Below, piece after piece: positions 16,218-38,769 of a stretch of DNA of 61,630 nucleotides. The notes below the pieces were generated by a model that did no database searches, was not told the origin of the DNA, and was given only the letters and a program-made list of their open reading frames with translations. Numbering within the stretch: the stretch's first letter is position 1; each line of letters opens with the position of its first letter. The DNA comes from a virus (Duplodnaviria; Caudoviricetes), in the IMG/VR virus record IMGVR_UViG_3300031949_000034, positions 1-61,630 of that record. One strand, 5' to 3'. Position numbers and translations under genes: made by a program.

Positions 16218-16246
16218 CGGCTAGCAGAGCTATCTCAGCGGGTCAA
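16218..16246 (-). promoter_or_regulatory. promoter TTGACC-N17-TAGCCG with AGATAGCT box
   Basis: Directly upstream of 16210. Confidence 0.55.
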
Positions 16247-16542
16247 CGAAGATAAGATATCCCGCGTTTTACGAGCCGCTGATGCATGATCCGCTGCACC
16301 ACGATGCCGCTCGCAATGCTGACCACCAGCGAGGTCGCGATCGTCAGGAAGAGCTCGCCCCGGTACCACGGCAAGGGCGGCAGGCGCCCCTCCTGACATC
16401 CTTCGCAGCCCGGGTGAGTGTCGCCGTCCTCGCAGACCGTGCAGCCGCCGTTCGAGAGATACGAGCAATGCGGGCAGACGAAGACCGCCGCCCGGGTTTG
16501 CCCGAGCGGCTGCCTCATCACGATGCCGAGGCCCGCGTACAA
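16243..16542 (-). CDS. small Cys-rich membrane protein
   Basis: CxxC motifs and C-terminal hydrophobic helix. Confidence 0.55.
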   Translation of the reverse strand: MYAGLGIVMRQPLGQTRAAVFVCPHCSYLSNGGCTVCEDGDTHPGCEGCQEGRLPPLPWYRGELFLTIATSLVVSIASGIVVQRIMHQRLVKRGISYLR

Positions 16543-16549
16543 GACGCCT

Positions 16550-16897
16550 CTACCTCTTCGGCCCCTGCCACCAGGCGTAGCCGAAGAGGACTCCCATCAC
16601 GATGCCGCCGGCGGCGGCGAGCATGACGTGGCCCCACGTCGTCTCGTTGTACTGGTCGCTCTCGATGGCGCCGATGCTGGCCCCCGAGCAGCCACAGCCC
16701 GAGAGCGGGGCGTAGCGAGGCAGCACGGCCTGGTTCACGGCGACGGTGCTCGCTTCGTAGTACTCGCCGACGCCCACCCGGCGGGGCCCCGCTCGGTAGG
16801 GGTTCGTGCCCCAGCCGGGGACGGGGGCGTGCTGCCAGCCCGGGGTGCCGGCGGGGCCTTCGCGGTACATGTCGTCGGTGACGGTGTAGAGGCTCAT
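16550..16897 (-). CDS. tail-anchored putative virion membrane protein
   Basis: GVGEYY motif and C-terminal TM. Confidence 0.7.
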   Translation of the reverse strand: MSLYTVTDDMYREGPAGTPGWQHAPVPGWGTNPYRAGPRRVGVGEYYEASTVAVNQAVLPRYAPLSGCGCSGASIGAIESDQYNETTWGHVMLAAAGGIVMGVLFGYAWWQGPKR

Positions 16898-16905
16898 GGC
16901 TTCTC

Positions 16906-17643
16906 CTAAACTCTCTGTGCGTGCGACTCTCGCGCCTGATCGAGGAGGTCCTTCGCGAGCTCGTCGAGCTCCTCGTCTGTGTCATCGGCACCGATGGTGC
17001 CCGCGCCCCAGTCGCCGCGGTGATCGGTGTCGTCCCCCGCGTCTCCGGTATGCAGATCCCAGTCGAGATCGCCGCCCCACCGCCGCACCTGCAGACGGAC
17101 GTCGATCTCGTCGAAGTCCTCCTTCTTGGCGTAGGCGCGCTCTTCCTTCAGCATGCGGCGGAGTTCGTCGAGCACCGCGCCGTCCTCGAGCCGCTCCGTC
17201 AGGACATTGTATTCGGCGCCGGCATGGATCTCGTCACCGCCCCACTCCCAGCTCGGGATGTAGTGCCCGTGCTTCATCGTGGTGTGGCCGATCTGTGTGA
17301 GATCCTGTTCTGCGTGCTGGGCGACCTTTTCGAACTCGCTATCCCCGTGGTCCGGCCAGTCGGGCTGCCACCTGATGTTGAGGTCCTCAGCGGCCTCCTT
17401 CAGATCCGCTTCCGTCACGTCGACCAGGATGCCCGGCGCGTTGTCATCGAGCCACTCGACGGACTCCTCGAAGGCGGTCTCGAAGTCGTCCGCCCAGACG
17501 TACACGATCGTGTCGCCGTAGGCCCCAAACCACATCCGGTAGAGGTTCGACTTGTTGTCGTTCGCCTCGAGCATCGGGGCCGTCTCGGCCTCCTCGGTCT
17601 TGCTCGGGCCGTTCCGTCGCTGCGTTCGCGGCTTACTCGTCAT
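16906..17643 (-). CDS. acidic hypothetical protein
   Basis: D/E-rich globular sequence. Confidence 0.7.
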   Translation of the reverse strand: MTSKPRTQRRNGPSKTEEAETAPMLEANDNKSNLYRMWFGAYGDTIVYVWADDFETAFEESVEWLDDNAPGILVDVTEADLKEAAEDLNIRWQPDWPDHGDSEFEKVAQHAEQDLTQIGHTTMKHGHYIPSWEWGGDEIHAGAEYNVLTERLEDGAVLDELRRMLKEERAYAKKEDFDEIDVRLQVRRWGGDLDWDLHTGDAGDDTDHRGDWGAGTIGADDTDEELDELAKDLLDQARESHAQRV

Positions 17644-18097
17644 CGTCGTTGTACTCCGGTTCGCGGCCTTCCTCATCGAGTCCGTACGCCTGCCGCTCTA
17701 TGGCGCGCCCCAGCTCACTCTCCTCAGCCTTCTCGCGCTCGTGCTGCTCGAGCCAGTCTCCCCAGCTCGCCATCACGAACGCCCCCTTCGCCGTGTCGTA
17801 GCCGATTGTCTGTACGTACGGATCGCCCATGTTCACGTATAGGAAAATGATATTTTCGTAGTAGTCGAGCCTGACATCATCGTCCCAGAGTTCCTCGACG
17901 CCGTGCCCCTCCAGAAGCTCGCTTGCTCGCTCAAGGACGCCACCCACGTCCGCCGGACCCTCCGCGCCCCGCATCTCCCGTAGGAGCGCCCGGGCCGCCT
18001 CCTCATCAAGCGCGTCCGGGTCATGCGACGTTCGTCGAGCGTCACGGAAAAGCCCCTTGATGTCTCGCAGAGCCTGGGCGGAGTCCACGGAAGGCAT
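17633..18097 (-). CDS. acidic hypothetical protein
   Basis: HGVE...YVNMGDPY; operon packing. Confidence 0.7.
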   Translation of the reverse strand: MPSVDSAQALRDIKGLFRDARRTSHDPDALDEEAARALLREMRGAEGPADVGGVLERASELLEGHGVEELWDDDVRLDYYENIIFLYVNMGDPYVQTIGYDTAKGAFVMASWGDWLEQHEREKAEESELGRAIERQAYGLDEEGREPEYNDDDE

Positions 18098-18101
18098 CCT
18101 A

Positions 18102-18581
18102 TCACCCTTTCTTGATCCACCACGCGGCCAGGCCCACGCCGAGGAGCGTGGTCGCCGTGAGGAGGAGGAGCGCCTTCAGGGCATCTTCCTTGATGAGGTT
18201 CGTCTGGGCTAGGAAGACCCCGAGCTCGCCCTCGAGCATGGGGCTCACCTGCTCGCGGAGCACCTCGTCCACGAGCACCGGCACGAAGTACTTCATGTCG
18301 TCTTCGATTCCGACGACGAGTTGCTCGAGCTTCGGCTGCGCCTGAGTCCAGACGTTATCGACGATGCCGGGGAGCTCGCGATCGAGCTGCACGCGGATGT
18401 CGTTGATCAACTGGTTGACCGGCATCTTGATGACGGTCTCGCCGAGGAGCGGCAGATCCACCTTGTAGCCGATCTCGCACGGGTCCCTCTGCGGGTTGTC
18501 CCGATTGAACGTGCTCGGCGGGCACCAGCTAGGCGCGCCGAGCCCGAGGAGCTTTCCCTGAAGCGCGCCGTGGTAGCTCAC
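18102..18581 (-). CDS. tail-anchored membrane protein
   Basis: LLGLG near the N-terminus; C-terminal TM followed by KK. Confidence 0.7.
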   Translation of the reverse strand: MSYHGALQGKLLGLGAPSWCPPSTFNRDNPQRDPCEIGYKVDLPLLGETVIKMPVNQLINDIRVQLDRELPGIVDNVWTQAQPKLEQLVVGIEDDMKYFVPVLVDEVLREQVSPMLEGELGVFLAQTNLIKEDALKALLLLTATTLLGVGLAAWWIKKG

Positions 18582-19231
18582 TGCGCTCTCCAGAAGGAGA
18601 GTCCACCCGGGGTCTGGTGGATATCGCCGTCGTAGCGGGCAACGAAGTGACCCTCGCCGTCTGCGCCGACCGCTTCCTCTGCAGCGGCCTCGATGTCGAT
18701 CCCGCCTAGCTCGAGGGCCTTCTGAAGGGCCTCCTCCTTGCTGTAGATCTCTTCCAGATACGCGATCGGCTCGCGCAGCTGTTCCACAGCGAGGAGATCG
18801 ACGAGCTCGTCCACCTCCTTCGTATTCGGGTCGCGGCGCTCGCCGTCCTCGTCCTCCTCCGGCACGTCGAGCCCCTCTCTCTCCCTGTCTTCCCAGACGC
18901 GATCGGGCTCCTCCCCGTACAGGTCGTAGAGGCTGTTCTCGACGTCGTCCTCGAGCTCCTTTCGGAGCTGAGCCTTGTCGATGTGATGCTCGAGGAAGTT
19001 TCGGTTGAAGTTCTCCGGCTCCTCCTCCAGGTCCTGCGTCACGATGGCAATGGCGAGCGCGTGCACGACATCGTCGTCCTCGGCCACGCAGTACTCCTTC
19101 GAGCCGAAGGTGACGCGGTAGACCTGGCCCACTCGGAAGCTCGAGTAGCCGCGGTCCACTTCCGCGTCGAGGTCGCGCTTCTCGGCGTCGAGCGCGAGGG
19201 CCATTTCCTTCAGGACGGTGGACTTGTTCAT
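18578..19231 (-). CDS. highly acidic protein (~27% D+E)
   Basis: Manual count about 59/217. Confidence 0.75.
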   Translation of the reverse strand: MNKSTVLKEMALALDAEKRDLDAEVDRGYSSFRVGQVYRVTFGSKEYCVAEDDDVVHALAIAIVTQDLEEEPENFNRNFLEHHIDKAQLRKELEDDVENSLYDLYGEEPDRVWEDREREGLDVPEEDEDGERRDPNTKEVDELVDLLAVEQLREPIAYLEEIYSKEEALQKALELGGIDIEAAAEEAVGADGEGHFVARYDGDIHQTPGGLSFWRAQ

Positions 19232-19506
19232 ACGCCGCGCCTCCTGCCTGCTATCAGCACGTCATACGTATCTCGTCCAATCTCTCTCCATCTCCATTCC
19301 TTGGTTTTCAAAGCTACCAACTTCCTGGATCTGCCTATTTTCTTCTCCATGAAGTCAGCGGCAGCCTCCTCTGCCATCCGACGCAGAGAGCGTTCTTGTT
19401 CTGGCGAGAGCCCGTCGATCAATTCTCGCGGCAGCTCGACAGAGATCAGTACATTGACGTCCGCCTCGACTGGTATTTCCAGGCGTACCGGGCCTCGCTT
19501 TTTCAT
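19228..19506 (-). CDS. hypothetical protein, lower GC
   Basis: 4-bp overlaps on both sides. Confidence 0.6.
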   Translation of the reverse strand: MKKRGPVRLEIPVEADVNVLISVELPRELIDGLSPEQERSLRRMAEEAAADFMEKKIGRSRKLVALKTKEWRWREIGRDTYDVLIAGRRRGV

Positions 19507-20171
19507 GCTGCCTTCTCCTGAAAATGCGTGCGCAGGAGCTCGTACGCGGCGTTCAGGCGCTGAAGGCGCTCCGTGTTCTTCTTCCGGCTCGCCTCCGACT
19601 GCGGAGCATCCGCGTTGTGCTTCACGACGAGCGACTTGTACCGCCGCTTCACCTCGTCAACCGTCGCTCCGGGGCGGAGCTTCAGGGTACGGAACGCCGC
19701 GGCTAGCTTGCTCGCGTCGGTCTCTTCAGAAGCTCGGCGCGGTCCCGGGCCCGGGCCCCGGCCTCGGGTCGTCGCCCGCGCGCCGGCAACGCATACGCCG
19801 CAGATCGCTGAGGCCGTGTAGTCGATCCGACAGTGAGCAAGGCAGCACGGCCGCCCGCAGCAATCGCACTGCACGACGGCCGCGGCGTCGCAGGAACTGA
19901 GCCTGCCGTCACGCCCCATGTGGGGTACGCTGCAGATCTCGCCCCGCGCTACTGCGATCGGCCACTTCGCAAGCGCATGCTGGGTGAGGTAGATGCCCCA
20001 CTCACGAATCTGCTCTACGATCTCGGTCGCCGTGCTCGCGTGCACGCGTCCGGTAGCGAGCACTGCCTCGAGCCACCCATCGAGCAGCGACGTGAACGCC
20101 CCTGTGCCGCGGCGTGCCCCCGTGAAGAGGCTGCCGAGCTCGGTGATGGGATCGCGACGTCTGCTGGCCAT
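19503..20171 (-). CDS. Zn-finger plus J-domain-like protein
   Basis: Cys cluster; TLKLRPGATVDEVKRRYKSLVVKHNAD...LNAAYELL. Confidence 0.8.
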   Translation of the reverse strand: MASRRRDPITELGSLFTGARRGTGAFTSLLDGWLEAVLATGRVHASTATEIVEQIREWGIYLTQHALAKWPIAVARGEICSVPHMGRDGRLSSCDAAAVVQCDCCGRPCCLAHCRIDYTASAICGVCVAGARATTRGRGPGPGPRRASEETDASKLAAAFRTLKLRPGATVDEVKRRYKSLVVKHNADAPQSEASRKKNTERLQRLNAAYELLRTHFQEKAA

Positions 20172-20221: not shown

Positions 20222-21052
20222 CTACTTCTTCTTCCTCTTCTGCACGACGAGCACCACGCCCGCAATGACCGCCGCTCCGAGGCCGTACATAGCCATCCGG
20301 CTCATCTGCATGGGCGACGCCGGCGCGGCCTCTCCCGTCACCTTCTCTTCGAGCGAGAAGTACGGCGGGCTCACCTCCGCGCCCGATCCAGCGGCCAGGC
20401 GCGGGAAGGTCGACGCGAGGTAGGCCTCGCCGTAGGAGGCGCTCGAGCGGTAGCTCTCGACGAGCGCGGCGATGCCGGCACCGTTCGGGTACATCCGTGG
20501 CTCCATCACCGTGAGCGTCTCCGGGGCCACGCCCTTCGCGGTGGCTACGGCCTGCGCCGCCTGAAACCACGCTGCCGAGGCTGCGTCGTCCCAGATGCCG
20601 CTGTCGTACCAGGCGGGGCTGTAGATCTGCTGCCCCTCCGGCGTGAGCGTGAGCGCTGGCGCCGCCAGGGCGACGGCCATCTTGAGCTCCGTCAGCACGG
20701 CAGGATCGGAGAGATCGAGCGACGCCGTCGCGCCGAGTCCCGAGAGGAAATACTCGCCAAGCCCGCGGAGGCCCCTGCGGCGCCGGTAGCGGCCGAGGCT
20801 GCCGTCCCGATAGGCTAGGAGCGCGCCGTTGCCGTCCGCGCCCGGGCGTCCGCCGAGAACGCCGTCCGCGTACGCGTGGAGCTGGCCCTCGATCTGCCCG
20901 AGGCTGCCGTCCCGGAACGCCTGCAGCGGCCCCGGCATCGGATCGCCTCCGTGGCCACCGACGACGCCGTCGCGGTACGCCGCGAGCATGCCGTCGTACT
21001 GTCCCAATCCCGCAGCGCCTTCTGTGATCGCAACCGGTCCGAAGTACGACAT
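20222..21052 (-). CDS. putative virion membrane protein with A(Y/F)RDG repeats
   Basis: Four repeats, GLGEYF, C-terminal TM and KRKKK. Confidence 0.75.
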   Translation of the reverse strand: MSYFGPVAITEGAAGLGQYDGMLAAYRDGVVGGHGGDPMPGPLQAFRDGSLGQIEGQLHAYADGVLGGRPGADGNGALLAYRDGSLGRYRRRRGLRGLGEYFLSGLGATASLDLSDPAVLTELKMAVALAAPALTLTPEGQQIYSPAWYDSGIWDDAASAAWFQAAQAVATAKGVAPETLTVMEPRMYPNGAGIAALVESYRSSASYGEAYLASTFPRLAAGSGAEVSPPYFSLEEKVTGEAAPASPMQMSRMAMYGLGAAVIAGVVLVVQKRKKK

Positions 21053-21086
21053 CTGGATCTATCCTTCTCGGGGAGAATACCCCGAC

Positions 21087-21320
21087 CTAGCCCTCGACGA
21101 AAGCCTGGAACTTGTCGTGCAGGGCGTGCATCACGACGGCGCCGGCCAGAGCGCCGACCCCAAACCATGCCCACCCCGGCACACTCTCACCCGGGGCGAA
21201 GCCGAGCGTCCGCCCGACCAGGCCGAGCGGCCCCCCCATGTGATCGAGGAGCGGCCCCGCCGCCCGGGCCGCGGCCCTGGCGTTCTCAGGGGTTCCAGCG
21301 ATGGCGACGAGGTTGTTCAT
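21087..21320 (-). CDS. small membrane protein
   Basis: Hydrophobic C-terminal half. Confidence 0.6.
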   Translation of the reverse strand: MNNLVAIAGTPENARAAARAAGPLLDHMGGPLGLVGRTLGFAPGESVPGWAWFGVGALAGAVVMHALHDKFQAFVEG

Positions 21321-21331
21321 GCTGGTGGAGC

Positions 21332-22093
21332 TTACCGCCTACTTCTCCGGTAGAGGTAGTAGCCGCCGCCCCCGGCGGCCAGGAGCAGGAGGATCCCACC
21401 GACGCCGAGCATGCTCGCCGAGCGGTTCCCGCCCTCCTCCAGAGGAGGCACACCGGTGGGAGGCGCGGGGGGGACGTACGGAGGCGGCATCGCCGTCGTC
21501 GGTGGCGAGCCCGACGGCGGGGGTTCACTCACGCTCGAGCACGACGGGATGGCGAGCAGACGGTTCCAGTACGTCTGGTCCTTCATGTAGAGCCAGCACA
21601 TCGCGTTCTTGACGTTGTCCGGCCCGTTGAATCCGTACGACTGGCAGTAGCCGATGAGGGACGTGACGCTGTCCTCGAGACACGGCGGCGTCCGCAGGAA
21701 GGACGGCGTCGTGCAGTACGGCAGCCCGAAGTACAGAATCCACGCGCCGCTCTCGATCCAGCTCCGGACGTCGTCCGGTACGGGCTCTCCCATGATGTAG
21801 CGGGACATGTACTGCGCGGTCATCTCGTCGATGCAGTGCGGCCGCTGGCAGTCTGGCAGCCCCTGCAGCATGCACGGATCCTGTCCGGCAAGCCTACCGG
21901 TCATCTCCTGCGGGCTCCGCGTCTGCCCGAGCCCGCGGAGCGTGCGTGACCGACACGCGCGCTGCGCCTCGATGCGCTCCTCCGGCGTCACGCACGTGGG
22001 TCCGCTCGATAGAGCCATACCGGTCGGACCGATGTTCGCAAACCCGAGTCCGCTCTGACCTCGACCTCTTCGGGCCACGTTGCCGTACATCAT
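21332..22093 (-). CDS. Cys-rich tail-anchored protein (paralog 1)
   Basis: YCQSYGFNGPD...NAMCW; Pro linker; TM. Confidence 0.75.
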   Translation of the reverse strand: MMYGNVARRGRGQSGLGFANIGPTGMALSSGPTCVTPEERIEAQRACRSRTLRGLGQTRSPQEMTGRLAGQDPCMLQGLPDCQRPHCIDEMTAQYMSRYIMGEPVPDDVRSWIESGAWILYFGLPYCTTPSFLRTPPCLEDSVTSLIGYCQSYGFNGPDNVKNAMCWLYMKDQTYWNRLLAIPSCSSVSEPPPSGSPPTTAMPPPYVPPAPPTGVPPLEEGGNRSASMLGVGGILLLLAAGGGGYYLYRRSRR

Positions 22094-22911
22094 GTCCTCC
22101 GCCGTCGCGTGACGTAGACCACGGCTCCGACGCCGACGACGACGGCGCCGATGATACCGAGTGTGCGCATGCTCATCCGCTGTCGCTCGGGCAATGGCTC
22201 GAGATCAGGCGGCACGTCGAACGCTCCCCCGTCGTCGGGGTACACCGACGACGGCGTGGAATCGTCCGGGGTGTAGGACGACGGAGGCGCGTAGTCCGCC
22301 GGCGGGGCGGGCGGCGGCATGTCGTAGGCAGGAGGCGAGTACGCCGGCGGCGAGTACGCTGGAGGCGCCGTGTAGGCGGGAGGACTCAGCACGGGCGTAG
22401 GCGTCGTCTCTGAACGAGGCGGCGCTGGGGGCGAGTACACCGGCGGAGGAGGAGCCGGCGGCGCCAGCGCGCTACACCTGGGCGTGTCGAGGACGCGCCG
22501 GTACGCCGTCGGCCAGCGGGAGCCCACCCAGCAGGCAGCGTTCAGGGTGCGATCCGGACCTTGGAAGTTCGGATACCGGCCGCAGTACTCGATGCTGGCC
22601 AAGTCACTATCGGTGTCCTGATAGCACTCCGGCCACTCCGCCACTGACGGCGCATCCCCTGCGCAGCCCGGCTTCAGGAATACCCCACACTCCGTCAGCG
22701 CCTGGCACACGGCCGCGAAGGCGAGGGGGTTCATGTCGTCGGGCGGCAGTCCGGCGATGCACGACCCGAACATCGTCGCGTAGTCCATCGTGAGACACGG
22801 CATCTGTGAGAAGCCCTGCCGCACCGCGTCCGTGCAGCCCCCTGCGCGCCAGATCGCTTCGAGGAAGGCCCGCTGCACCGCGGGACTGATCACACCGAGT
22901 CCGTGCATCAT
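22090..22911 (-). CDS. Cys-rich tail-anchored protein (paralog 2)
   Basis: YCGRYPNFQGPD...NAACW; YSPPA repeats; TM. Confidence 0.75.
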   Translation of the reverse strand: MMHGLGVISPAVQRAFLEAIWRAGGCTDAVRQGFSQMPCLTMDYATMFGSCIAGLPPDDMNPLAFAAVCQALTECGVFLKPGCAGDAPSVAEWPECYQDTDSDLASIEYCGRYPNFQGPDRTLNAACWVGSRWPTAYRRVLDTPRCSALAPPAPPPPVYSPPAPPRSETTPTPVLSPPAYTAPPAYSPPAYSPPAYDMPPPAPPADYAPPSSYTPDDSTPSSVYPDDGGAFDVPPDLEPLPERQRMSMRTLGIIGAVVVGVGAVVYVTRRRRT

Positions 22912-23504
22912 CTCGGGCCTCGCTTCTTTTTCTTCATCATGAGCGCCACGAACCCGATGCCGACCGCGCCGATTGCAGCGGCCGCGAGCAGATTCTTCTT
23001 GGTTGCGTCCGCTGGCGCCGTAGCCTGTCCGGGCACCACGACTTCATCGGGCGGCGCATCCTGCCCGACGCCGAAGATCGAGCGCGACGTCGATTCCGAT
23101 GCGCCGACGCCGCTTGCCCCCGGGCATAGGGCACGCTGCAGCCAGCGCGTCCTGTACGCTGGGTACCGCGCCATTTTGAAGCAGTACTTGTTCCAGTTGC
23201 CGTCAGCCCCCCTGAAGGTCGGATTGGCGAGGCAGTACTTCCGCACCGCATTCGTCCCCGTGTTGATGCACGTCGGGATCTGCCCGAACATCGCCACCTC
23301 GTCCGTCGGACACCCCACCTTCGTGAGCGCGCCGCAATCACTGAGCGCCATGCATGCTGCGGCATGTATCCACGGATGCACGCCCGTCGGCGGCGCGCCG
23401 TAGCAGGTGGACAGATCGCGGACCATGCTGGTCGAAAGGCACTTCTGCGCCCGCGCCTGCTGGCAGTAGATCTGCGGATTCATATACATGTCGAGGATTG
23501 CCAT
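22908..23504 (-). CDS. Cys-rich tail-anchored protein (paralog 3)
   Basis: YCLANPTFRGAD...NKYCF; TM and KKKKR. Confidence 0.75.
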   Translation of the reverse strand: MAILDMYMNPQIYCQQARAQKCLSTSMVRDLSTCYGAPPTGVHPWIHAAACMALSDCGALTKVGCPTDEVAMFGQIPTCINTGTNAVRKYCLANPTFRGADGNWNKYCFKMARYPAYRTRWLQRALCPGASGVGASESTSRSIFGVGQDAPPDEVVVPGQATAPADATKKNLLAAAAIGAVGIGFVALMMKKKKRGPR

Positions 23505-24313
23505 CACGCAGTCTCCTTTTTGACCTGGCGCCACACGAAGAACGCGCCCACCGCGACCGCCACGCCCACCGCCCACGGCTTCCAGTCGGGCGAAGGAGCG
23601 ATGGCTACAGAGCGCGGAGTCGCTGACGCAGGCGCAGGCGCCGCAGGCGCGGGCGGCAGAGGAGGAGGAGAGGCGCGGGCGGGCGACTCGATGAGATTGT
23701 GCATCTCGAGCGCGCTCGAGAAGGACGTCGCTGGCCAGTCGCGCGTGGTGCTCGAGCCGGCGGGGATCTGCATACCAAAAACGAGTACGCCTTCAGCGAT
23801 CGCCGCCGTCTGCTCGAGGCTCCGGGGATGAGCGGGCACCTCGGGATCGTCGAGCCGCTCTCCCCAGTAGAGAAAGAAGATGGTCGGGATGGGCTTGCCG
23901 TCGTCCTGACGGTAGACCGCCTGCGTTTCGTACGCTCGGTAGGGCGTGCCGCTCCAGAGCGAGTCCGCCTCCAGGCTCGTGAGCGGCGTCTGGCTCAGGA
24001 TCGCCACGAACGGCACCGGTGAGCCGAAGGTCACGTCCAGCGCAGCCTGCAGGGCCACGTCGGTGAGCCGCCAGAGCGCTGTGTTCGTGTCGGGTGCGCG
24101 CTCCGGAGACTCCCACTCCACGTCGCTTACCCGCGTCGCCCACGGCGTGTAGACGCCGAGAGGAGCGAGGCCGAGCGCGTCGACCAGATCGGTGAGGAGC
24201 GACGCCATGGGGAGCTGCCCGAGGCTGGTGCCGAGCGGCGCGGCATCGAGCCTGAGGCCGCTTCGCACCGGATCGGAGATCCGGCTGTATGGGACGCGCA
24301 CGGGGGACTTCAC
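23504..24313 (-). CDS. tail-anchored putative virion protein
   Basis: Pro/Ala linker and C-terminal TM. Confidence 0.7.
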   Translation of the reverse strand: MKSPVRVPYSRISDPVRSGLRLDAAPLGTSLGQLPMASLLTDLVDALGLAPLGVYTPWATRVSDVEWESPERAPDTNTALWRLTDVALQAALDVTFGSPVPFVAILSQTPLTSLEADSLWSGTPYRAYETQAVYRQDDGKPIPTIFFLYWGERLDDPEVPAHPRSLEQTAAIAEGVLVFGMQIPAGSSTTRDWPATSFSSALEMHNLIESPARASPPPLPPAPAAPAPASATPRSVAIAPSPDWKPWAVGVAVAVGAFFVWRQVKKETA

Positions 24314-24327
24314 GGCTGGCTCCTCGT

Positions 24328-24473
24328 GTCAGCGAGAGAAAGAGACTGGTCGACAGTTTCCGAACACCGGGTGACTCTACGCATTTTGTCCAACGCGAAA
24401 GCGGTCCGCTGCCCACCGCCACGTCCGAAGACGTAGTGAAGATGCTCTCGACCAGCCTCTTTCTCTCGCTGAC
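24328..24473. repeat. 26-bp inverted repeat (1 mismatch) enclosing 94 bp
   Basis: 24328-24353 vs reverse complement of 24448-24473. Confidence 0.85.
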
Positions 24474-24482
24474 CTCGGGGTG

Positions 24483-25403
24483 TCACCGGGGACCTCCCCC
24501 ACGCGAGGCGTATCCACCGCTCGCGTTCGTCATGGGTTTCATGCACTCGTTCATCGAATCGATCCACTCCTCTGGCAGTAGCAGTCCTCCGATATCGTAC
24601 TCGAAGAATGCCACAGGACTCGGGATGGGCCGAAAGATCACGCACCGGAGTTGCACGACCTGGTTGGCGCGCACGAGCAGCGTGAACGGCACACTCGTCG
24701 GTCCGTAGCCCTGCGGCCGCTGCGGCATGAGGGAGGTGCCGGCGCCGCTCGCCGCTGCGAACGAGCTCGCCGCTGCGATGTTGAACCGCGACGCCGGGTT
24801 GAACGGCAGCACGAGCCCGAGTTCGGTGAGGACGGGGCCGGGGTTGCCGGGAATGATCGGCGCCGTGAACGCTTCCTGCGTCGTCTGGATGGGCACCGGA
24901 TCGAGTTGAAACATCGTGTTTCCCGGGTGTTGCCCGTCGATCCTCAACTCGAACCCGAGGATGCTCGAGAAGCGCCGGGACTCGACCGGCACTGTGTCGC
25001 CCGGATCGATCCCGCTGAAGCGGTAGATGTCGGGGCGCAGATCGAAAAGGAGGAGCCCGAAGGTCTGCGGGCACTGGAACGCGCCGAGCTCGAACACGAA
25101 CGGCCTGTCCGGGTTGACGCTCGCCTGGAACATCCCTTCCTCGGGCAGCCGCCGGTAGAGCTGCTCGAACGGCGTCACCATGGGGTGCACCATGAGGGAG
25201 TTCAGAGCGCCGCCGGCGAGCTGGACGCGCTGCGCGGCGTTGCAGTCCCAGTTCGTGCCCATGCCCTCGTTCGGGGAGGCGGGGGGCGGCACATCGCCCA
25301 CTCCGCCAGGGCGGAGCATCTGGACCGCGCGCGGGGCTTCCCACGGCGGTACCCGGATGCCAGCCCGCGCCGGGTCACCCAAGAAGAGCGGCGGAGCTTG
25401 CAT
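24483..25403 (-). CDS. putative minor capsid protein (possible jelly roll)
   Basis: Beta-rich, downstream of the MCP candidate. Confidence 0.5.
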   Translation of the reverse strand: MQAPPLFLGDPARAGIRVPPWEAPRAVQMLRPGGVGDVPPPASPNEGMGTNWDCNAAQRVQLAGGALNSLMVHPMVTPFEQLYRRLPEEGMFQASVNPDRPFVFELGAFQCPQTFGLLLFDLRPDIYRFSGIDPGDTVPVESRRFSSILGFELRIDGQHPGNTMFQLDPVPIQTTQEAFTAPIIPGNPGPVLTELGLVLPFNPASRFNIAAASSFAAASGAGTSLMPQRPQGYGPTSVPFTLLVRANQVVQLRCVIFRPIPSPVAFFEYDIGGLLLPEEWIDSMNECMKPMTNASGGYASRGGGPR

Positions 25404-30046: not shown

Positions 30047-30122
30047 CTCGACGCATCTCCGCTTTCAAGCAGAGCGCGCGGTGAAGTCGGAAAGCCACCC
30101 GCAGCGTTGCCGTAACGAGCTC

Positions 30123-30151: not shown

Positions 30152-30155
30152 ACAC

Positions 30156-30277: not shown

Positions 30278-30309
30278 CTCGAGAGCCTAACCCACGAGAG
30301 CCGCCGCGG

Positions 30310-32196
30310 CTACTTCGACAGCCCGCGGAAGAGCAGATAGCCGCCGCCGACTACGGCGGCGCCAACTGCCGCTTTCTTCATCACTTGCCGCAGTTTACGA
30401 GCCTGTATTCGTGCCTCTGCCCGCGCCTTTGCGGCCCCGACGAGCCCCTCCACGCTCCGCTCGACGCCGAGGACCTCGATGCGGCAGTCGGCGCCCACGG
30501 TAGGCGGAGGCAGGACCCCTTCGTAGGGGCCCCCGCGTCGATAGCCGCGCTGCCGCTGGCAGGCGCGATAGAGCTCGCGCTCGGCGTCGGTCATGTCGTC
30601 CGAGTACGGATCGGGCACGGCATGGAGCTGGACCATCGGATTTAGCCGCGCGCCCGCAGCAATGCAGAGGTAGCGCGCGGCGATCGTCTGGCCGCTCGGG
30701 TCGTAGCACTCGCGGAATCGCGCGTGCTGATTGCTGGCGAGCGATGCCTCGAGCAGGTCGAGCGCTGCGGTGGCGCCCGCAGCCCAGCTCGCCGTCGCAA
30801 TGATGTCTCGGCTCACGAGCCCCGAGAACTTCTCGAGTTGCATCATGTTGTCCTGGAGGCGCTTGATCGAGTCGCCGATCGCGCAGTCGCTCGTCGGATG
30901 CGCGCCGCCGCTGCCTTCCACCCAGACCTCGCCGACGTAGGACGCGGTCTCGAGGTTTTGCCGATCCGTCTTCTCCCAGCTGTAGGTCGTCGCCGGAAAC
31001 GTCTTCAGCCGCTCGGTCCACCAGTAGAACAGTAGAGCGCGCGGATCGATCGTACCCGTGCCCGCTCGGAGTGTGCCGCCAGGACCTATGTCCACCGTCT
31101 CGAGCATGTTCTTCACGGGGTTGTCCAGCAGATCGTAGCGGTGCCGGATCTGCATCGTGAGCGCCCCGGTCCAGTCGCATCCCTCTGCCTGCCCTGATCG
31201 GCAAAGGTAGAGGCAACCGTTCGGATTGTACGTGCCATCCGTCAGGAGGCAGAAGTGGCTGTAGTACATGGCATTGGGATCGTAGGTGACCCCGAAGTGC
31301 CGCACTCCGCCCGATGCCCGGATGAGCCATCCCATCTCCGCCGAGTCGAGCATCGCGCTGAGGTTGCCGATCACCGTGTCCCAGTACTCGTTGTACGAGG
31401 CCCAGGCGTCGAGCCCCGCGGACATGCACTCAGCCATGCGGGCCTGACGCGCTCGCTCCGCCTTCCGCCACGCTGCGCGCTGTTTCTCGCTCTCGCTCGG
31501 GCCGAAGATGTTCTTGAACATCCCGACGAAGCCGTCGGTGATGAGGCTTGCCGCGAGAGCCCCGAGGGGGGCCGGGATCCCGAAGGCCTGCGCGATCGCG
31601 GCTCCGGCGACGCACGCCGCGGCAACGGCGAGGTTCTCGGCATCCTCTGCGGTGAGCTTGCCGTCCCCGAAGACGGAGTCGACGACGTCGACCAGTCCTG
31701 GAGACACGCCGACGTACGTGCACGCGATGCGGGCCGCGGCCAGCGCGACTCCCTTCGTGGAGAGCGGGATGCCGTAGGACTCGGCGAAGGTCTTCCCGAG
31801 CTCAAGCGACCACGCCGCTCCCTCGTCGAGGGTCGTGGGCATGTTCTTGATCAAGTCGTATCCGGCGACCATTTCCGCCGGCACCCCGATCTTGGTGGCG
31901 TTCGACGTCACGAACGCCTCCATCATGCCGGCCATCTCGTCCGTGTCTCGCGGCAGCCCGTGCTTCGAGAACCATTCGTCTGCCCAGGCCGTCACTTCGT
32001 TGCCGACCATCGGCGTGCCCTGGGGGAGATCGAGGACGAAGTCCTTGGCGACCGCGCGCCGGACATCGGCCGTCGCGGCCGCCATCTGCGGCGTGTAGTA
32101 GAGCTCGGCCGTCGCCGAGAGTTGCGCCATCACCTCGGGCCCCGTCACGGGGACAGGCGGGCTAGCCCCGAGTCCGGAAGCACCGACGTAGCTCAT
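30310..32196 (-). CDS. large putative virion membrane protein (628 aa)
   Basis: N-terminal SGLG, central hydrophobic hairpin, C-terminal TM. Confidence 0.75.
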   Translation of the reverse strand: MSYVGASGLGASPPVPVTGPEVMAQLSATAELYYTPQMAAATADVRRAVAKDFVLDLPQGTPMVGNEVTAWADEWFSKHGLPRDTDEMAGMMEAFVTSNATKIGVPAEMVAGYDLIKNMPTTLDEGAAWSLELGKTFAESYGIPLSTKGVALAAARIACTYVGVSPGLVDVVDSVFGDGKLTAEDAENLAVAAACVAGAAIAQAFGIPAPLGALAASLITDGFVGMFKNIFGPSESEKQRAAWRKAERARQARMAECMSAGLDAWASYNEYWDTVIGNLSAMLDSAEMGWLIRASGGVRHFGVTYDPNAMYYSHFCLLTDGTYNPNGCLYLCRSGQAEGCDWTGALTMQIRHRYDLLDNPVKNMLETVDIGPGGTLRAGTGTIDPRALLFYWWTERLKTFPATTYSWEKTDRQNLETASYVGEVWVEGSGGAHPTSDCAIGDSIKRLQDNMMQLEKFSGLVSRDIIATASWAAGATAALDLLEASLASNQHARFRECYDPSGQTIAARYLCIAAGARLNPMVQLHAVPDPYSDDMTDAERELYRACQRQRGYRRGGPYEGVLPPPTVGADCRIEVLGVERSVEGLVGAAKARAEARIQARKLRQVMKKAAVGAAVVGGGYLLFRGLSK

Positions 32197-32753
32197 CCAA
32201 CAATCCCGTCCTTGGAGATGTCGAGCTCGCCGCCAGCGAGCACCATGTAGATCTCGCTACTGTCGTGGATGAACAGGAGCGTTTCCCCTGTCTTCGGATG
32301 CTTCGCCGCGCCGAGCGAGCACCGGGGCGCCCGAATCTCGTAGAAGTTGCGACCGTTGGGAAGGAAGTGCTCGCCATCCCGCTCCTCGTAGAGCTGCACC
32401 TGGATGCCGATGACTGGACCGAGACGCGCGAAGTGCCGTGGCATCGGCTCCTCGAAGGCCACCATCGGGCCGACAGCAGGCACGATCGCGCGGGGGCTGC
32501 CCCAGCTCCGGATCCAGCCCGGCCTCTGGTAGACCAGGCGACTGCTCTCGACGACGTGCTTGTAGTCCTCGTAGTCCGTGGCGTTCTTCTGCCACTTGTT
32601 CGAGGAGTACATCTCGGCCCGACCCTTGCCGATCTCTTGCATCTCCCGCGGCCACTGAAAGCGCATCGGGACGGTCCGACTGCTGTCCTTGTCGTGGAAC
32701 GCCCGAAACGTCTTTCGCGCCTCTGCGCTCGTGTCGACGACGCGGACGGTCAC
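32193..32753 (-). CDS. hypothetical protein in the structural operon
   Basis: Coupled overlaps with both neighbours. Confidence 0.7.
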   Translation of the reverse strand: MTVRVVDTSAEARKTFRAFHDKDSSRTVPMRFQWPREMQEIGKGRAEMYSSNKWQKNATDYEDYKHVVESSRLVYQRPGWIRSWGSPRAIVPAVGPMVAFEEPMPRHFARLGPVIGIQVQLYEERDGEHFLPNGRNFYEIRAPRCSLGAAKHPKTGETLLFIHDSSEIYMVLAGGELDISKDGIVG

Positions 32754-33094
32754 CGTGCCCTCGCCGCGACCACTACGACCCCAGCGATGAGAAGGACGCC
32801 CACCAGGACGATGGCGTCCGCACCGCCCCGCGGCGCAGGCTCTAGCGCGCCGATATGGGAGCGGCTGACGAGGCGGCGGGAATCGACAGGAGCCACCAGC
32901 CCGATCGCATCGTCGCCATTGCCCACCCAGCTAGCGCCCGCCGGGATCGGGCGACCGGCCTCGATTGACGGCACGCCGAGGCGGCCAGCCTCCCGCAGAT
33001 CGGGGGTCGGCAGATCGTCGTTGATGTTCACGACCTCATCGACGTCGAAGTAGTCGTAGCCGTCGCCTTCGGGACGCCAGCGCGAGTAGATCAC
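32750..33094 (-). CDS. tail-anchored protein
   Basis: GTG start overlaps the upstream stop; C-terminal TM. Confidence 0.65.
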   Translation of the reverse strand: MIYSRWRPEGDGYDYFDVDEVVNINDDLPTPDLREAGRLGVPSIEAGRPIPAGASWVGNGDDAIGLVAPVDSRRLVSRSHIGALEPAPRGGADAIVLVGVLLIAGVVVVAARAR

Positions 33095-33981
33095 GCGGCC
33101 TCCTTTCGGGACCTCACGAGCCCCACGGCCCCCTTTATGACGCTCGGCGCAGCCAGAAGCGCCACATAGGCGAGAAGCCCGATGCCGAGCCACTTCACGA
33201 CGTCCTGGGCGGGCTTGAATAGCTGCGAGAGGGAGTCGTTCTGCATCTCCTGCAGGGACTCGATGCAAGCGCCGGCGTTCGCGGGGTCCGCTGCGATCAA
33301 CTGATCGCACCAGGCGACCACCTTGTCCTGGAGCTTTGCCGCCCGCGTCGTCGACCAGATCAGGTAGGCCACGCCGAGGATCAGCACGACGCCGGCGACG
33401 ACGAGCATCCACACTGGTATTGCGAGCGGAGCCACGCCGAGGCCAGCCGTCGGCTCCTGCCTCCGGATCTCGTCGAACGCCCCGTCACCGTCGAGCCTCA
33501 CGAAGGTCTGCATGACCTTCGTCACGTCGTCGGCGTGCGCTTGCACCTCCGTCGTAGTGAATCTCCCCTCCGTGAGGCCCTGGTACATCACGCCGTCGAG
33601 ATGGAGATACGCACCGTTTACGGCGTAGCCGGCGACGGTGGCGAGAGCATCCTTCATCGCCTCCCTGCTGATCTGCAGGGCCTCGTTCGGGGAGAGTTCC
33701 CAGATGTTGTCGCTCATCGCGTTGAGAGCGTCCCCCGCCACGCCCTGGAGGGCGGACGAGAGATCAGCGAGTGACGTCCGCCCCTCCTGAGCACGCACCG
33801 TGCGATAGCGCGCCTCCACGTCGATGCGGCCGATGACGTCGAAAAACGCACTCATCTCCTGGATCATGACGTCGAGGTACTGGCTCCCCATGACGCCCTC
33901 TGGGAGCGACGCCCAGGGCAAGCCCCGGGGGGCGGCCTGGGCCTCCCACGCGAGGGCGAGCTCGACGACGGCGGGGTTCAT
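33091..33981 (-). CDS. two-TM putative virion protein
   Basis: AGLGV followed by two hydrophobic helices. Confidence 0.7.
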   Translation of the reverse strand: MNPAVVELALAWEAQAAPRGLPWASLPEGVMGSQYLDVMIQEMSAFFDVIGRIDVEARYRTVRAQEGRTSLADLSSALQGVAGDALNAMSDNIWELSPNEALQISREAMKDALATVAGYAVNGAYLHLDGVMYQGLTEGRFTTTEVQAHADDVTKVMQTFVRLDGDGAFDEIRRQEPTAGLGVAPLAIPVWMLVVAGVVLILGVAYLIWSTTRAAKLQDKVVAWCDQLIAADPANAGACIESLQEMQNDSLSQLFKPAQDVVKWLGIGLLAYVALLAAPSVIKGAVGLVRSRKEAA

Positions 33982-34346
33982 GCGGCCTTCCTCTTCTTGT
34001 CCCCGCGGTACGCGAGGTACGCGAAGCCCCCGAAGAGGACCGCAGCGGCGCCCCACGCCCAGCGCGGCACCTGATCGATGGCCGTGCCGACGTCCCGCAT
34101 GAACGTTCCCGGCTTCTCACCCGTCCCGGCGAGGTACTCGCGCATGCCGCCCGGGAACGCCTCGAGCGGCTCGTAGTAGCCGAGGTTTGCGAGCGTGGCA
34201 GGATCGGCGTGGCCTGACGACGACATGGGATAGGCGCCGCGGCCACTCTGCTGGTAGGCGAGCAAGGCCCCGTAGGTGGTCGCGTCCCACTCGCCGGTCA
34301 CCCGGACGCCGAGGTTTCGCTGGAGGGTGTCGACCGGTCCCGGCAT
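33978..34346 (-). CDS. peptidoglycan-binding-like domain membrane protein
   Basis: LQRNLG...TGEWDATTYGALLAYQ. Confidence 0.7.
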   Translation of the reverse strand: MPGPVDTLQRNLGVRVTGEWDATTYGALLAYQQSGRGAYPMSSSGHADPATLANLGYYEPLEAFPGGMREYLAGTGEKPGTFMRDVGTAIDQVPRWAWGAAAVLFGGFAYLAYRGDKKRKAA

Positions 34347-36569: not shown

Positions 36570-36940
36570 CGGCCCTTCCTCTTGCCGAATCCCTGGGCGA
36601 GAGCGACGGGGATCGTGACGATCGGCGCGAGCGCTCCGAAGAAGCCCCACAGGAGCGCCCACCCGATCTTCTCGGTGCGCTTGTAGCCGTGGTAGACGCC
36701 GACGCCGCCGCCGATGAAGCTCGCCCAGTCCCAGAAGGCGCTCCGCGTGCCGCCGAGGACTCCAGCGTGGGACGCGTCGCTCATGTCTGGTGGAGGCAAC
36801 GGCTCGAGGATGGGCGCGTTCGGGTCGCCCTCGATCATCGTCTCGGTGATCGTGACCGGCGCCGCGGTCGTCTCGTCGGCGCCCATCGGCACGACGCCGA
36901 GCCCGCTCATCTCGCCTGTGAAAATGCCTCCGCGCTTCAT
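36566..36940 (-). CDS. small membrane protein
   Basis: MSGLG; YHGYKR...GWALLWG. Confidence 0.72.
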   Translation of the reverse strand: MKRGGIFTGEMSGLGVVPMGADETTAAPVTITETMIEGDPNAPILEPLPPPDMSDASHAGVLGGTRSAFWDWASFIGGGVGVYHGYKRTEKIGWALLWGFFGALAPIVTIPVALAQGFGKRKGR

Positions 36941-37140
36941 GTAACGCCTCCGGGTTCGATCATTCGGGAAGTGGCCCACAGAGCGAGACCGACGAGGCCG
37001 AGGACCATGAGCGCCGAGGTCCATCGTGGGCGCGATTCCCAATATTTGTCGTCGGCACCGATCCCGCCGTAGCCCCGCACCAGAAGCTCGGGGTTCAGAC
37101 CCATGACGCGAGGGTCGGGGCTGGCGGCGCAGGGACACAT
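36937..37140 (-). CDS. small membrane protein
   Basis: GGIG motif; TM. Confidence 0.6.
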   Translation of the reverse strand: MCPCAASPDPRVMGLNPELLVRGYGGIGADDKYWESRPRWTSALMVLGLVGLALWATSRMIEPGGVT

Positions 37141-37517
37141 CAGCGGCGGCCCTTCTTGTTCGAGACGAGGCCCATGATGCCGAGCCCGATCGGGCCGGTG
37201 GCGAGCCCCACGGGCACGCCGATCCAGCCCCACAATTTCTCCTTGCTCGAGCTTGGGGCCATGGCCTTGCCGGCCTGGTAGGAGAGCGCCGCTATGGCTA
37301 ACGCAAAGAAGGCGTAGTAGAGCGTATCGTCGTGGTCTATAGACCCAACTCCGCCAGCGGGCTGATCGAGCGCGCGGAGCATTCCGAACGCCGGCGATAG
37401 GGCGAGCCCCACCCCGAGCACCTGATCGGGGTGGCCAGACGAGGGCAGCGGATACGGGGGCGTATCGAAGCTCATCATCCGGGAGAAGATCGTGTCCTCT
37501 TGCGGAACGCGCATCAT
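37140..37517 (-). CDS. small membrane protein
   Basis: Two C-terminal hydrophobic segments. Confidence 0.65.
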   Translation of the reverse strand: MMRVPQEDTIFSRMMSFDTPPYPLPSSGHPDQVLGVGLALSPAFGMLRALDQPAGGVGSIDHDDTLYYAFFALAIAALSYQAGKAMAPSSSKEKLWGWIGVPVGLATGPIGLGIMGLVSNKKGRR

Positions 37518-38212
37518 CGGCGACCTCGCTTCACAGGCATGAGAGTCGCGGCGGTGATCCCGACGGCGACGCCCACGATCGCCAGAGCGATGACGAGCCG
37601 GCTCACATTCGGCCGAGCGTCTTCCGCGGCCCCGAGTCCCCCAATGGGGAAGGCGTAGTCCCGTGGGATCCACGTGGACTGGTCTGCCGGCAGGCCGTGG
37701 GGCTCCTCCGGGAGCGGGATCTCGTAGAGGAGCTGCGTCGCAGCGTAGGCGTCCTCCTGCGCCTGGTCGATGGCCACCGCGCCCGAGGGCACGAAGAGCA
37801 CGGCCTCGCCCGTCGTGCCGTCGATCACCGTGCTCGGCCGGTAGAACCTGTCCCGCACGATGTACCCGGGCAGGCTCTCATGATCGGCAAACACGCCTTC
37901 GTCGGGGTGGATGTTACCGTGGCTTCCGGCCGGATCGAAGACGCCATTGCCCTGCACGTCGTCGGCCTCAGCGAGCACGTTGAGCTCGTTCGGGTAGTCG
38001 CGAATGCCTTCGTCAGCGGTCATGCTGTCCTGTCCGAGACCGGCGAGGTTTCGTCCCCACGCGGCTCCGTAGACGTTGTACGCGGAATTCATCGAGCTCG
38101 GCCGCGTATCAGGCGGTCCGATCTCCTCGATCGACGGTAGCGATCCCCCGAAGAGCGGCGTCGAGTCGTAGACCGGGTACGGAGGCGCGAGCGGAAGGGT
38201 GCGGTTCGACAT
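37514..38212 (-). CDS. acidic tail-anchored protein
   Basis: LAGLG and IGGLG motifs; TM. Confidence 0.72.
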   Translation of the reverse strand: MSNRTLPLAPPYPVYDSTPLFGGSLPSIEEIGPPDTRPSSMNSAYNVYGAAWGRNLAGLGQDSMTADEGIRDYPNELNVLAEADDVQGNGVFDPAGSHGNIHPDEGVFADHESLPGYIVRDRFYRPSTVIDGTTGEAVLFVPSGAVAIDQAQEDAYAATQLLYEIPLPEEPHGLPADQSTWIPRDYAFPIGGLGAAEDARPNVSRLVIALAIVGVAVGITAATLMPVKRGRR

Positions 38213-38769
38213 CAGTACCTCATCATTCCATGACCCGGGGGCTCGTCGAGGCTCACGGTGTAGTAGGTGGTGACGCGCTCGAGCATCCCACGCTCGTCAG
38301 TGCCCGCGACCGGGTCGCAGATGATCGTTTTTTCGCTCCGGGGCTCGACCGTGCCCTCGAAGACGTGGCTGTAGGCGCCCGGGCCCCCGAATCCCACCAC
38401 GAAGAACTTCGCCACCCGTCCGAGGCACAGGTGCATGCAGCCGATCAGGGTCGCGATGTCGTCGCAGTCCCCGCTCGCGATCCCGTACTCGTCGACCTCC
38501 TCGATGAGCCGCTCGGGGTCCTTCACCATCTCGACGTGCAACTGGTCGTTGATGTAGCGGACGTTCTCGGTCACCCAGTAGCGGACGGCAAGAATCTCGC
38601 CCAGGTAGTCCTTACCCTGGAGGCCTCGGGTGATGTCCTCCACGCGGGTCCGGACGCGCATCGACTGCTCGCCGCGCGGACCCTGAGCCGCCTTCTGCAT
38701 CTCCCGCAGCGTGTCGGGGTGGCCGCTGAAGCCACTGAGCATGTACGCCGGCTGGTGCAGAGAGTGCAT
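38212..38769 (-). CDS. transglutaminase-like Cys protease (candidate maturation protease)
   Basis: GDCDD...YSHV...ICDP Cys-His-Asp triad. Confidence 0.82.
   Translation of the reverse strand: MHSLHQPAYMLSGFSGHPDTLREMQKAAQGPRGEQSMRVRTRVEDITRGLQGKDYLGEILAVRYWVTENVRYINDQLHVEMVKDPERLIEEVDEYGIASGDCDDIATLIGCMHLCLGRVAKFFVVGFGGPGAYSHVFEGTVEPRSEKTIICDPVAGTDERGMLERVTTYYTVSLDEPPGHGMMRY

Follow-up and report, generated by a model that had tools for sequence, protein, structure and literature searches.

A candidate virion-morphogenesis module with a predicted single-jelly-roll capsid protein in a lineage of large bacterial viruses from soil

The 61,630-bp stretch of DNA analysed here (hereafter the window) is one entire virus record, IMGVR_UViG_3300031949_000034. 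At positions 16243-38769 it carries a block of genes which, on balance, we take to be the virion-morphogenesis module of a large tailless, membrane-containing double-stranded (ds) DNA bacterial virus from soil, whose genome would be condensed rather than pumped. The record was rated 45% complete by CheckV, about half of one genome. Two soil-metagenome DNA runs were listed for it, one of them probably its source and the other containing a small share; no RNA run was among them. It has no terminal direct or inverted repeat, and its G+C content is 64-71% throughout. Gene calling, based on a codon-usage score trained on the longest frames with high GC3 (G+C at third codon positions), gave 91 genes. 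The block comprises genes 18 to 48 (31 genes), all on the minus strand except for one doubtful 41-codon call, and these genes mostly overlap by 4 nucleotides (nt) at their start and stop codons.

Family scans of the block covered 17 of the 31 genes for PHROGs and 19 for Pfam. The sole PHROG match was the endolysin-like phrog_380 in 34903-36114 (E-value, E, 2.4e-7), and in Pfam a DnaJ domain in 19503-20171 alone exceeded its curated cut-off; LysM, PG_binding_1 and DUF732 were matched below the cut-off. No terminase, portal or tail family was found in these scans, in agreement with a preliminary description of the window made from its letters. A scan for promoter and terminator consensus sequences over 23000-31000 gave nothing above shuffles.

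The candidate major capsid protein (262 amino acids, aa) is encoded at 26500..27288 on the minus strand. Its true start is the Met at 27288 rather than that of a longer open reading frame reaching 27387 or 27531, since the homologues (252-271 aa) begin at the same Met. More than 628 homologues were found; among the 120 listed, identity is 62-98%, none is named and the contigs on which they sit reach 134 kb. When 1.84 billion cluster representatives were searched in full with HMMER, 90 matched, and none of the 90 ties the protein to a known family. Comparison of its profile with PDB sequences gave chance matches only. The gene has a structured leader (27289-27430, minus strand, z-score -4.1), and its stop codon is followed by a perfect 11-bp G+C hairpin (26394-26499, minus strand, z-score -2.7).

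The preliminary description had called this protein jelly-roll-like, and structure prediction bears this out. The AlphaFold2 model, computed from a 50-sequence alignment, is a beta sandwich of jelly-roll type, a single jelly roll, with a predicted local distance difference test score (pLDDT) of 87 and a predicted template modelling score of 0.86; at the level of the model, this fold can be regarded as established. In an exhaustive comparison with 48,161 PDB representatives, the top structural match was the shell protein of SPV1 (Z 8.0 over 135 residues, 3.6 Å), followed by P23-77 VP17 (Z 7.0), the STIV turret jelly roll (6.5), and HHIV-2 and HCIV-1 (6.0-6.1). Rescoring of Foldseek candidates again placed SPV1 first (6oj0_A, Z 8.6, 137 of 178 residues, root mean square deviation 3.8 Å), ahead of P23-77 VP17 (3zmn_B, 7.2), the VP16-VP17 entry 3zn6_A (6.8), HCIV-1 (6.0), HHIV-2 (5.8) and SH1 (5.4). 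The weak Foldseek list itself consists almost entirely of viral jelly-roll coats, with PRD1 P3 at E 0.09-0.11. Three weak matches in BFVD (E 6e-4 to 1e-3), to coats of small single-stranded DNA viruses and to unnamed proteins, were uninformative. At the sequence level, the profile gave no link to SPV1, and identity to the SPV1 protein is just 8-9%.

Close copies of the capsid candidate are present on six IMG/VR contigs and two contigs from genome collections. Three of these relatives are complete: G002 (136,226 bp), G004 (111,584 bp) and G005 (135,429 bp), with direct terminal repeats of 123, 132 and 120 nt, respectively, and all rated 100% complete. The preliminary description had supposed a genome at least twice the size of those of known kin; with complete relatives of 112-136 kb, this was an understatement. 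The block is syntenic in the three genomes. Orthologues in all three were found for 20 window genes, 13 of which lie within the block, and the capsid candidate is the best conserved of these core genes (77.5, 68.5 and 55.8% identity). A capsid role is supported by this conservation, by the lack of any membrane segment or signal-like end in the protein and by the hairpin after its stop codon. The core genes outside the block encode two glycosyltransferase-like proteins, the products of 8768-9370, 15644-16210, 43296-45767 and 48189-49016, and DnaB.

Two conserved genes for beta-rich proteins follow the capsid candidate on the minus strand, and gene order 35-34-33-32-31 around it is retained in seven of seven related loci. 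The first, at 25413..26393, encodes a second shell candidate of 326 aa with a helical hairpin (residues ~4-58) and a beta-rich domain (~83-324); it has 533 homologues, with an identical gene on a 115-kb contig, and is a core gene in all relatives. The beta domain of its AlphaFold2 model gave weak structural matches to PBCV-1 (Z 5.6), ASFV p72 (5.1), HCIV-1 (5.0) and SPV1 (4.9). The second, at 24483..25403, encodes a soluble protein of 306 aa, possibly a vertex or minor shell protein, and is also a core gene (59, 42 and 37% identity to the three complete relatives); its ESM Atlas model is poor and falls among unnamed clusters only. For both proteins, profiles compared with PDB sequences gave chance matches only. 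The preliminary description had taken them as possible relatives of the capsid candidate; we dropped the idea that they are sequence paralogues, as pairwise profile-profile probabilities were 0.06-0.15%, and neither is related at profile level to the capsid candidate or to the other. A predicted complex of the capsid candidate with residues 78-326 of the 25413-26393 protein scored 0.00 and is evidence for neither side. Downstream, 3′ of 24483-25403, lies a 149-nt structured intergenic element with a 20-bp closing stem (24334-24482, minus strand, z-score -5.4).

The block is further marked by membrane proteins anchored at their C-terminus. Under a strict hydropathy rule (a terminal membrane segment followed by at most 20 residues), such a segment was found in 15 of the 31 block genes and in none of the 60 genes outside (Fisher p 5e-9), and 14 of the 15 tails are net basic. 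A lenient rule raised the counts to 20 of 31 and 2 of 60. The approximate figure of 20 proteins with a C-terminal membrane segment and basic tail, given previously, thus corresponds to the lenient count. Several of the tail-anchored proteins are core genes. Internal-membrane viruses such as PRD1 and PM2 are characterised by a structural module in which small membrane proteins encoded by the virus predominate. From gene content, we infer that the virion contains an internal lipid membrane and has no tail.

Packaging and tail genes were then sought in the complete relatives as well as in the window. In six-frame searches of five records (the window and G002 to G005), with positive controls, Terminase_6N (PF03237), TerL_ATPase (PF03354), Phage_capsid (PF05065) and FtsK_SpoIIIE (PF01580) matched none. 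The preliminary description had left open that HK97 or terminase genes might lie just outside the window, and had proposed a search for an FtsK/A32-like packaging ATPase; no recognisable terminase, HK97 or FtsK-type gene was detected in the window or the complete relatives. A bulk scan of 150 of the 159 proteins called in G004 matched 41 Pfam and 77 PHROG families, and the 25 families inspected from each set included no terminase, portal, head or tail family. Of the few proteins with a P-loop of the form [AG]x4GK[ST], DnaB alone recurs in the window and in each of the three complete genomes; a ChlI/ComM-like AAA+ protein was found in G002, a MoxR ATPase in G004 and a small kinase-like protein in G005, and DnaC-like loaders make up the rest. 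Three kinds of genes are common to the complete genomes and absent from the window: those for wall enzymes (an SLT transglycosylase and a weak M23-like match), those for modifying enzymes (a GDSL esterase, a methyltransferase and an M48-like peptidase) and, together with unknowns, those for collagen-related proteins; an amidase/PG_binding_1 endolysin of G004 has a homologue in G002 and no match in G005. Judged from sequence, the core genes beyond the window appear to be wall-lytic and modifying enzymes rather than ATPases.

These searches bear on the possibility that the virus is a very divergent tailed phage whose hallmark genes escape profiles and whose jelly-roll protein is a decoration, cement or fibre protein. 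Jelly-roll cement or decoration proteins were indeed matched (Pam1, Z 5.7; KHP40, 5.5; GP4, 5.2), ESM Atlas clusters of two block proteins mostly carry the automatic label Uroviricota, and collagen-like fibre genes occur in G002. Set against this, the TerL, HK97 capsid and FtsK families are missing from all five records, three of them complete, a P-loop occurs in DnaB only among the 20 four-way core genes, the block proteins mostly lack a PHROG match, and no relative of the capsid candidate was found in 50,697 GenBank phage records. We consider a tailed phage improbable.

Adjoining the capsid candidate gene, 27455..29944 (minus strand) encodes a polybasic, membrane-anchored core protein of 829 aa. 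Its residues 1-505 contain 36% Lys+Arg and 2.4% Asp+Glu, giving a net charge of +170. Hydrophobic segments at 514-532 and 584-602 are followed by a C-terminal Gly-rich domain with repeated AAAG-[MLIF]-G-[EQ]-[YF] motifs. The same architecture was seen in G004 (814 aa, +134) and in an open frame of G002 (101313-103889), and Pfam and PHROG scans of the 829-aa protein were without match. By simple arithmetic, ~1,350-1,600 copies at +170 each would neutralise a genome of 115-136 kb. The protein may bind DNA. Its charge and the non-detection of a packaging motor point to a virion assembled by condensing the genome onto the membrane.

The same features could also be those of an enveloped virus or element without a capsid, pleomorphic or vesicle-like, in which the numerous tail-anchored proteins make up the envelope, the polybasic protein coats the DNA and the jelly-roll protein acts as spike, lectin or matrix protein instead of as an icosahedral shell. 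Jelly rolls are common in lectins, nucleoplasmins and monooxygenases (Z 6-6.7 here), membrane proteins dominate the block and no packaging motor was detected. However, the best structural matches of the capsid candidate are shell proteins of membrane-containing icosahedral viruses, the protein, without membrane segment or signal-like end, is the most conserved of the lineage, and with two other soluble beta-rich proteins it makes up a constant trio, an arrangement known from capsid gene sets. In addition, the pleomorphic membrane viruses known to us are small. An enveloped element is thus a rather unlikely explanation, although a more serious one than a tailed phage.

The block is closed by 38212..38769 (minus strand), which encodes a 185-aa protein with a predicted transglutaminase fold (papain-like Cys-His-Asp type) and is the second best conserved core gene. 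Pfam and PHROG scans of the protein itself gave no match. In the ESM Atlas, it obtained a feature score of 0.97 and template modelling scores of 0.78-0.96 to clusters in which 63-97% of the members carry PF01841, and a distant homologue in the Planctomycetota genome G015 matches PF01841 (Transglut_core) with E 6.4e-11. It is a candidate virion maturation protease. The motif G-[LMVIF]-G was counted 51 times in the 7,193 residues of the block and 15 times in 11,722 residues outside, and the position of several sites is retained in orthologues of 37514-38212, 36114-36569, 33091-33981, 20222-21052 and 27455-29944; some copies fall within Gly-rich membrane segments and are uninformative. We hypothesise that cleavage occurs at A-G-[LMI]-G sites.

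Several points weigh against the interpretation of the block as a morphogenesis module of a motor-less, tailless virus. Non-viral jelly rolls come close behind the viral ones in the structure comparison (peptidylglycine monooxygenase, Z 6.7; nucleoplasmin, 6.3), Z values of 7-8.6 are in the middling range of such comparisons, where a best Z of 7-8 is common, and Foldseek against PDB gave no match at E ≤ 0.001. For these reasons the kinship of the modelled capsid candidate to SPV1 or the helvetiaviruses is a lead only. Structure prediction, proposed in the preliminary description for all three beta-rich proteins, yielded a jelly roll for the capsid candidate, whereas the model of the second shell candidate is poor (pLDDT 56.8) and its jelly-roll fold only weakly indicated. 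The absence of motor, portal and tail genes rests on profiles and on the P-loop motif, so that a very divergent or motif-less enzyme would escape, and portal and tail families were not searched singly in six frames. G002 carries at least six collagen-repeat proteins, pointing to fibres of some kind in the lineage. Finally, in a distant, integrated relative in G015 (see below), a P-loop ATPase is encoded close to capsid-like genes, and the wider family may thus use a motor.

Most of the remaining genes listed for the block, on the minus strand, encode anchored proteins. Between the polybasic protein and the wall-binding candidates, 30310..34346 holds five conserved genes with orthologues in G002, G004 and G005: a 628-aa Cys-rich protein with 12 Cys and a C-terminal anchor (30310-32196), a soluble 186-aa protein (32193-32753), an anchored 114-aa protein (32750-33094), a 296-aa protein with two membrane segments (33091-33981) and an anchored 122-aa protein with a weak PG_binding_1 match (33978-34346; E 0.012, below the cut-off). 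The next two genes, 34346-34900 and 34903-36114, encode tail-anchored proteins of 184 and 403 aa with peptidoglycan-binding-like repeats. They have a repeat in common (E 4e-4), and a LysM match in this pair reached E 0.0027, below the cut-off. The LysM and peptidoglycan-binding proteins of the preliminary description are therefore weakly supported, by the shared repeat and by Pfam matches that are all below the cut-off; the pair may act at the virion membrane in wall binding or entry. Five small tail-anchored proteins follow at 36114-36569, 36566-36979, 36937-37104 (a doubtful call), 37140-37517 and 37514-38212, of which the first and the last are core in all three complete relatives.

On the other side of the beta-rich trio, 20222..24313 encodes six tail-anchored proteins. 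Three of them (21332-22093, 22090-22911 and 22908-23534) are tandem Cys-rich paralogues (E 3e-10 and 4e-11), each with 10-11 Cys, a Pro-rich linker, an anchor and an Arg/Lys tail, and 23504-24313 is a core gene. The distal part of the block (16243..20171) encodes three tail-anchored proteins (16243-16542, 16550-16897 and 18102-18581), three acidic soluble proteins with isoelectric points of 4.2-4.4 (16906-17676, 17633-18097 and 18578-19231) and a Cys-rich protein with a C-terminal J domain (19503-20171; DnaJ, E 2.4e-6, with 28.0 bits just over the cut-off of 27.8).

Outside the block, a family scan of ten larger genes yielded the integrase domain of a 1353-aa protein, a GT4 glycosyltransferase, Cpn10/GroES, an SNF2 helicase, DnaB, an IstB/DnaC-like ATPase and DUF3310/Lar. 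This 1353-aa protein is encoded at 2451-6512 (plus strand); nothing but the tyrosine-recombinase domain (residues 469-540) was recognised in it, and it is present in G002 and G004 and not in G005. The gene-free gap after it is occupied by an array resembling clustered regularly interspaced short palindromic repeats (CRISPR; 6965-7810), in which a repeat of 36-38 nt recurs every 71-78 nt in 12 copies, the last two degenerate; no cas gene was seen in the window. A transfer-messenger RNA (tmRNA) with the tag ENDNAQLVAA lies at 14799-15150 on the minus strand (ARAGORN; Rfam RF00023, 94.6 bits), next to Cpn10 (12403-12711) and within a short distance of the block gene for the J-domain protein. Two inverted genes 37 kb apart, 1517-1984 (plus strand) and 39113-39580 (minus strand), encode 155-aa paralogues that are 65% identical. 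Their domain matches two G002 proteins, 078 (with collagen repeats) and 057, and the paralogues may be fibre head domains. Six collagen-triple-helix proteins are encoded in two regions of G002 (43-59 kb and 114.2-115.7 kb), in the company of glycosyltransferases and a protein with a GDSL-lipase domain; none is encoded in the window. The core protein of 43296-45767 (823 aa, minus strand), without family match, combines a long, charged coiled coil in its middle with a stretch rich in Pro and Ala and could be a scaffold or size-determining protein.

Some of these genes would also suit an integrative element or a large plasmid with a cell-envelope or secretion module, mislabelled as viral by metagenome pipelines. 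The 1353-aa recombinase-domain protein, the DnaB and DnaC-like genes, the glycosyltransferases and the CRISPR-like array of the window would fit such an element, as would two copies in bins of Pirellulales metagenome-assembled genomes (MAGs). Yet the three complete relatives are discrete molecules of 112-136 kb with terminal repeats, the core includes wall hydrolases (amidase endolysin, SLT, M23-like) besides the capsid-like fold, no relative was found in 72,556 plasmid records and only 1 of 401 sampled Planctomycetota genomes carries a close copy. A non-viral origin is accordingly the least probable of the explanations considered, slightly below the tailed phage.

Both genome-collection contigs that carry a close copy are labelled uncultured Pirellulales MAGs. 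This binning evidence hints weakly at Pirellulales as hosts, and not at Myxococcota, which had been tentatively suggested previously. The capsid profile matched 3 of the 401 sampled Planctomycetota genomes, one closely and two distantly. When 19.9 kb of the block was compared by BLAST with 401 Pirellulales genomes, matches of 25-75 nt were obtained in 48 further genomes; the flanks of five were checked for spacers, none of the five lay in a repeat array, and these matches were discarded as chance. The tmRNA was uninformative as to host: in the two MAGs no tmRNA scored above the cut-off, and in two other Planctomycetota the tag is not that of the virus.

One of the distant matches deserves separate mention. 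In G015, a low-GC (34%) integrated element at ~5.884-5.914 Mb of contig 1, a 9.3-Mb Planctomycetota contig, encodes a distant capsid-family member of ~207 aa, followed by two more unannotated genes, together with a 283-aa zinc-ribbon P-loop ATPase, the 416-aa Transglut_core protein and a tyrosine integrase. This element may be a cousin of the large lineage, small and equipped with a motor. In the literature, we found no description of large bacterial single-jelly-roll viruses or of the capsid candidate family, although the datasets of PMC8812541 could list further jelly-roll families.

Returning to the reading that we prefer, of a large tailless, membrane-containing virus, the following scheme can be proposed. 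The outer shell, presumed icosahedral, would be built from the 262-aa single-jelly-roll protein, with the two adjacent beta-rich proteins probably forming a second shell or vertex component. Beneath it would lie a lipid membrane derived from the host and studded with ~20 virus-encoded tail-anchored proteins, their short Arg/Lys tails on one face, among which the Cys-rich paralogues and the peptidoglycan-binding-like proteins could serve attachment and wall penetration. DNA would not be pumped into a preformed head; instead, the +170 half of the 829-aa protein would condense the genome, and its membrane segments would tie the nucleoprotein to the membrane. The transglutaminase-fold protein would then act as a cysteine protease to mature virion proteins, possibly at A-G-[LMI]-G sites.

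A broader generalisation is more tentative, and we hold it to be possible rather than probable: that the block represents a widespread, hitherto undescribed, high-rank lineage of viruses of 110-140 kb, probably with Planctomycetota hosts, which combine a jelly-roll shell, an internal membrane, a protamine-like membrane-anchored condenser and an A-G-[LMI]-G protease and which dispense with a motor. Characterised prokaryotic viruses with a jelly-roll shell over a membrane are all small, and the large prokaryotic virus genomes known to us are so far those of tailed phages; among viruses of bacteria, a lineage of 112-136 kb with hundreds of environmental members would overturn this rule of size. 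Motor-free packaging of dsDNA, for which SPV1 is the first example, would thereby gain a second, independent one, and the enclosure of more than 100 kb by condensation would become directly testable. As a deep branch, it would bear on the origin of the single-jelly-roll virus realm. Because such viruses are invisible to classifiers based on hallmark genes, they are probably undercounted in soil viromes.

Among known systems, the closest parallel is offered by SPV1 (Portogloboviridae), which has an internal membrane, a protein-coated genome core and a genome of ~20 kb, and for which condensation-type assembly has been proposed. Its single-jelly-roll shell protein (PDB 6oj0) was the top match in both structure searches, with Z values (8.0 and 8.6) that are middling. 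In PMC8812541, SPV1 is described as having no genome-packaging ATPase. None was detected here either, and a conserved +170 polybasic protein adjoins the capsid candidate gene. The two nevertheless differ in most of their gene content, and the genomes studied here (112-136 kb) are about sixfold larger. SPV1 infects an archaeal host (Sulfolobales), whereas the window carries genes of bacterial type (DnaB, Cpn10, tmRNA, LysM-like) and copies occur in Pirellulales MAG bins. We know of nothing in SPV1 that resembles the 829-aa polybasic protein, the ~20 tail-anchored proteins or the transglutaminase-fold protein.

The Helvetiavirae (P23-77, SH1, HHIV-2, HCIV-1 and SNJ1) provide a second comparison. 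Genomes of P23-77, SH1 and SNJ1 are ~16-31 kb, and those of the complete relatives here are 4-8 times larger. [quoted passage not shown] Helvetiaviruses, however, have two demonstrable single-jelly-roll capsid proteins, whereas the neighbour 25413-26393 gives weak Z values of 4.9-5.6 on a model of pLDDT 56.8. According to PMC8812541, most helvetiaviruses have a packaging ATPase in common with double-jelly-roll viruses; here, no ATPase of the FtsK/HerA superfamily (A32-like) was recognised, PF01580 matching none of the five records. Single-vertical-jelly-roll dsDNA viruses are placed in the realm Singelaviria, as stated in PMC12714852. The present lineage departs from that group in its lack of a recognised packaging ATPase and in its size.

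Tectiviridae and Corticoviridae (PRD1 and PM2) have many small membrane proteins in their structural module and wall-lytic enzymes associated with the virion. They share with the present lineage a tailless particle with an internal membrane, which for the latter is deduced from genes. The prokaryotic double-jelly-roll viruses have an FtsK/HerA-type ATPase and genomes of <20 kbp, according to PMC8812541. These Bamfordvirae further differ in their coat: the 262 aa of the capsid candidate hold one jelly roll, and double-jelly-roll coats gave only partial, weak matches. Duplodnaviria are set apart by an HK97-fold capsid and a large terminase, found in none of the five records, in which portal families were not searched separately.

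Adenoviruses provide an analogy rather than a relative. Their genome is condensed by Arg-rich core proteins (VII and mu), and a cysteine protease, adenain, cuts at short Gly-containing motifs, much as we suppose here for the polybasic protein and, at the enriched A-G-[LMI]-G motif, for the transglutaminase-fold protein. The proteins are not homologous and the protease fold is another one; moreover, adenoviruses lack a membrane, their hexon is a double jelly roll and they possess a packaging ATPase. If the broader generalisation given above is correct, the lineage would represent a bacterial, giant-scale counterpart of the archaeal SPV1 design, together with a convergent echo of adenovirus core chemistry.

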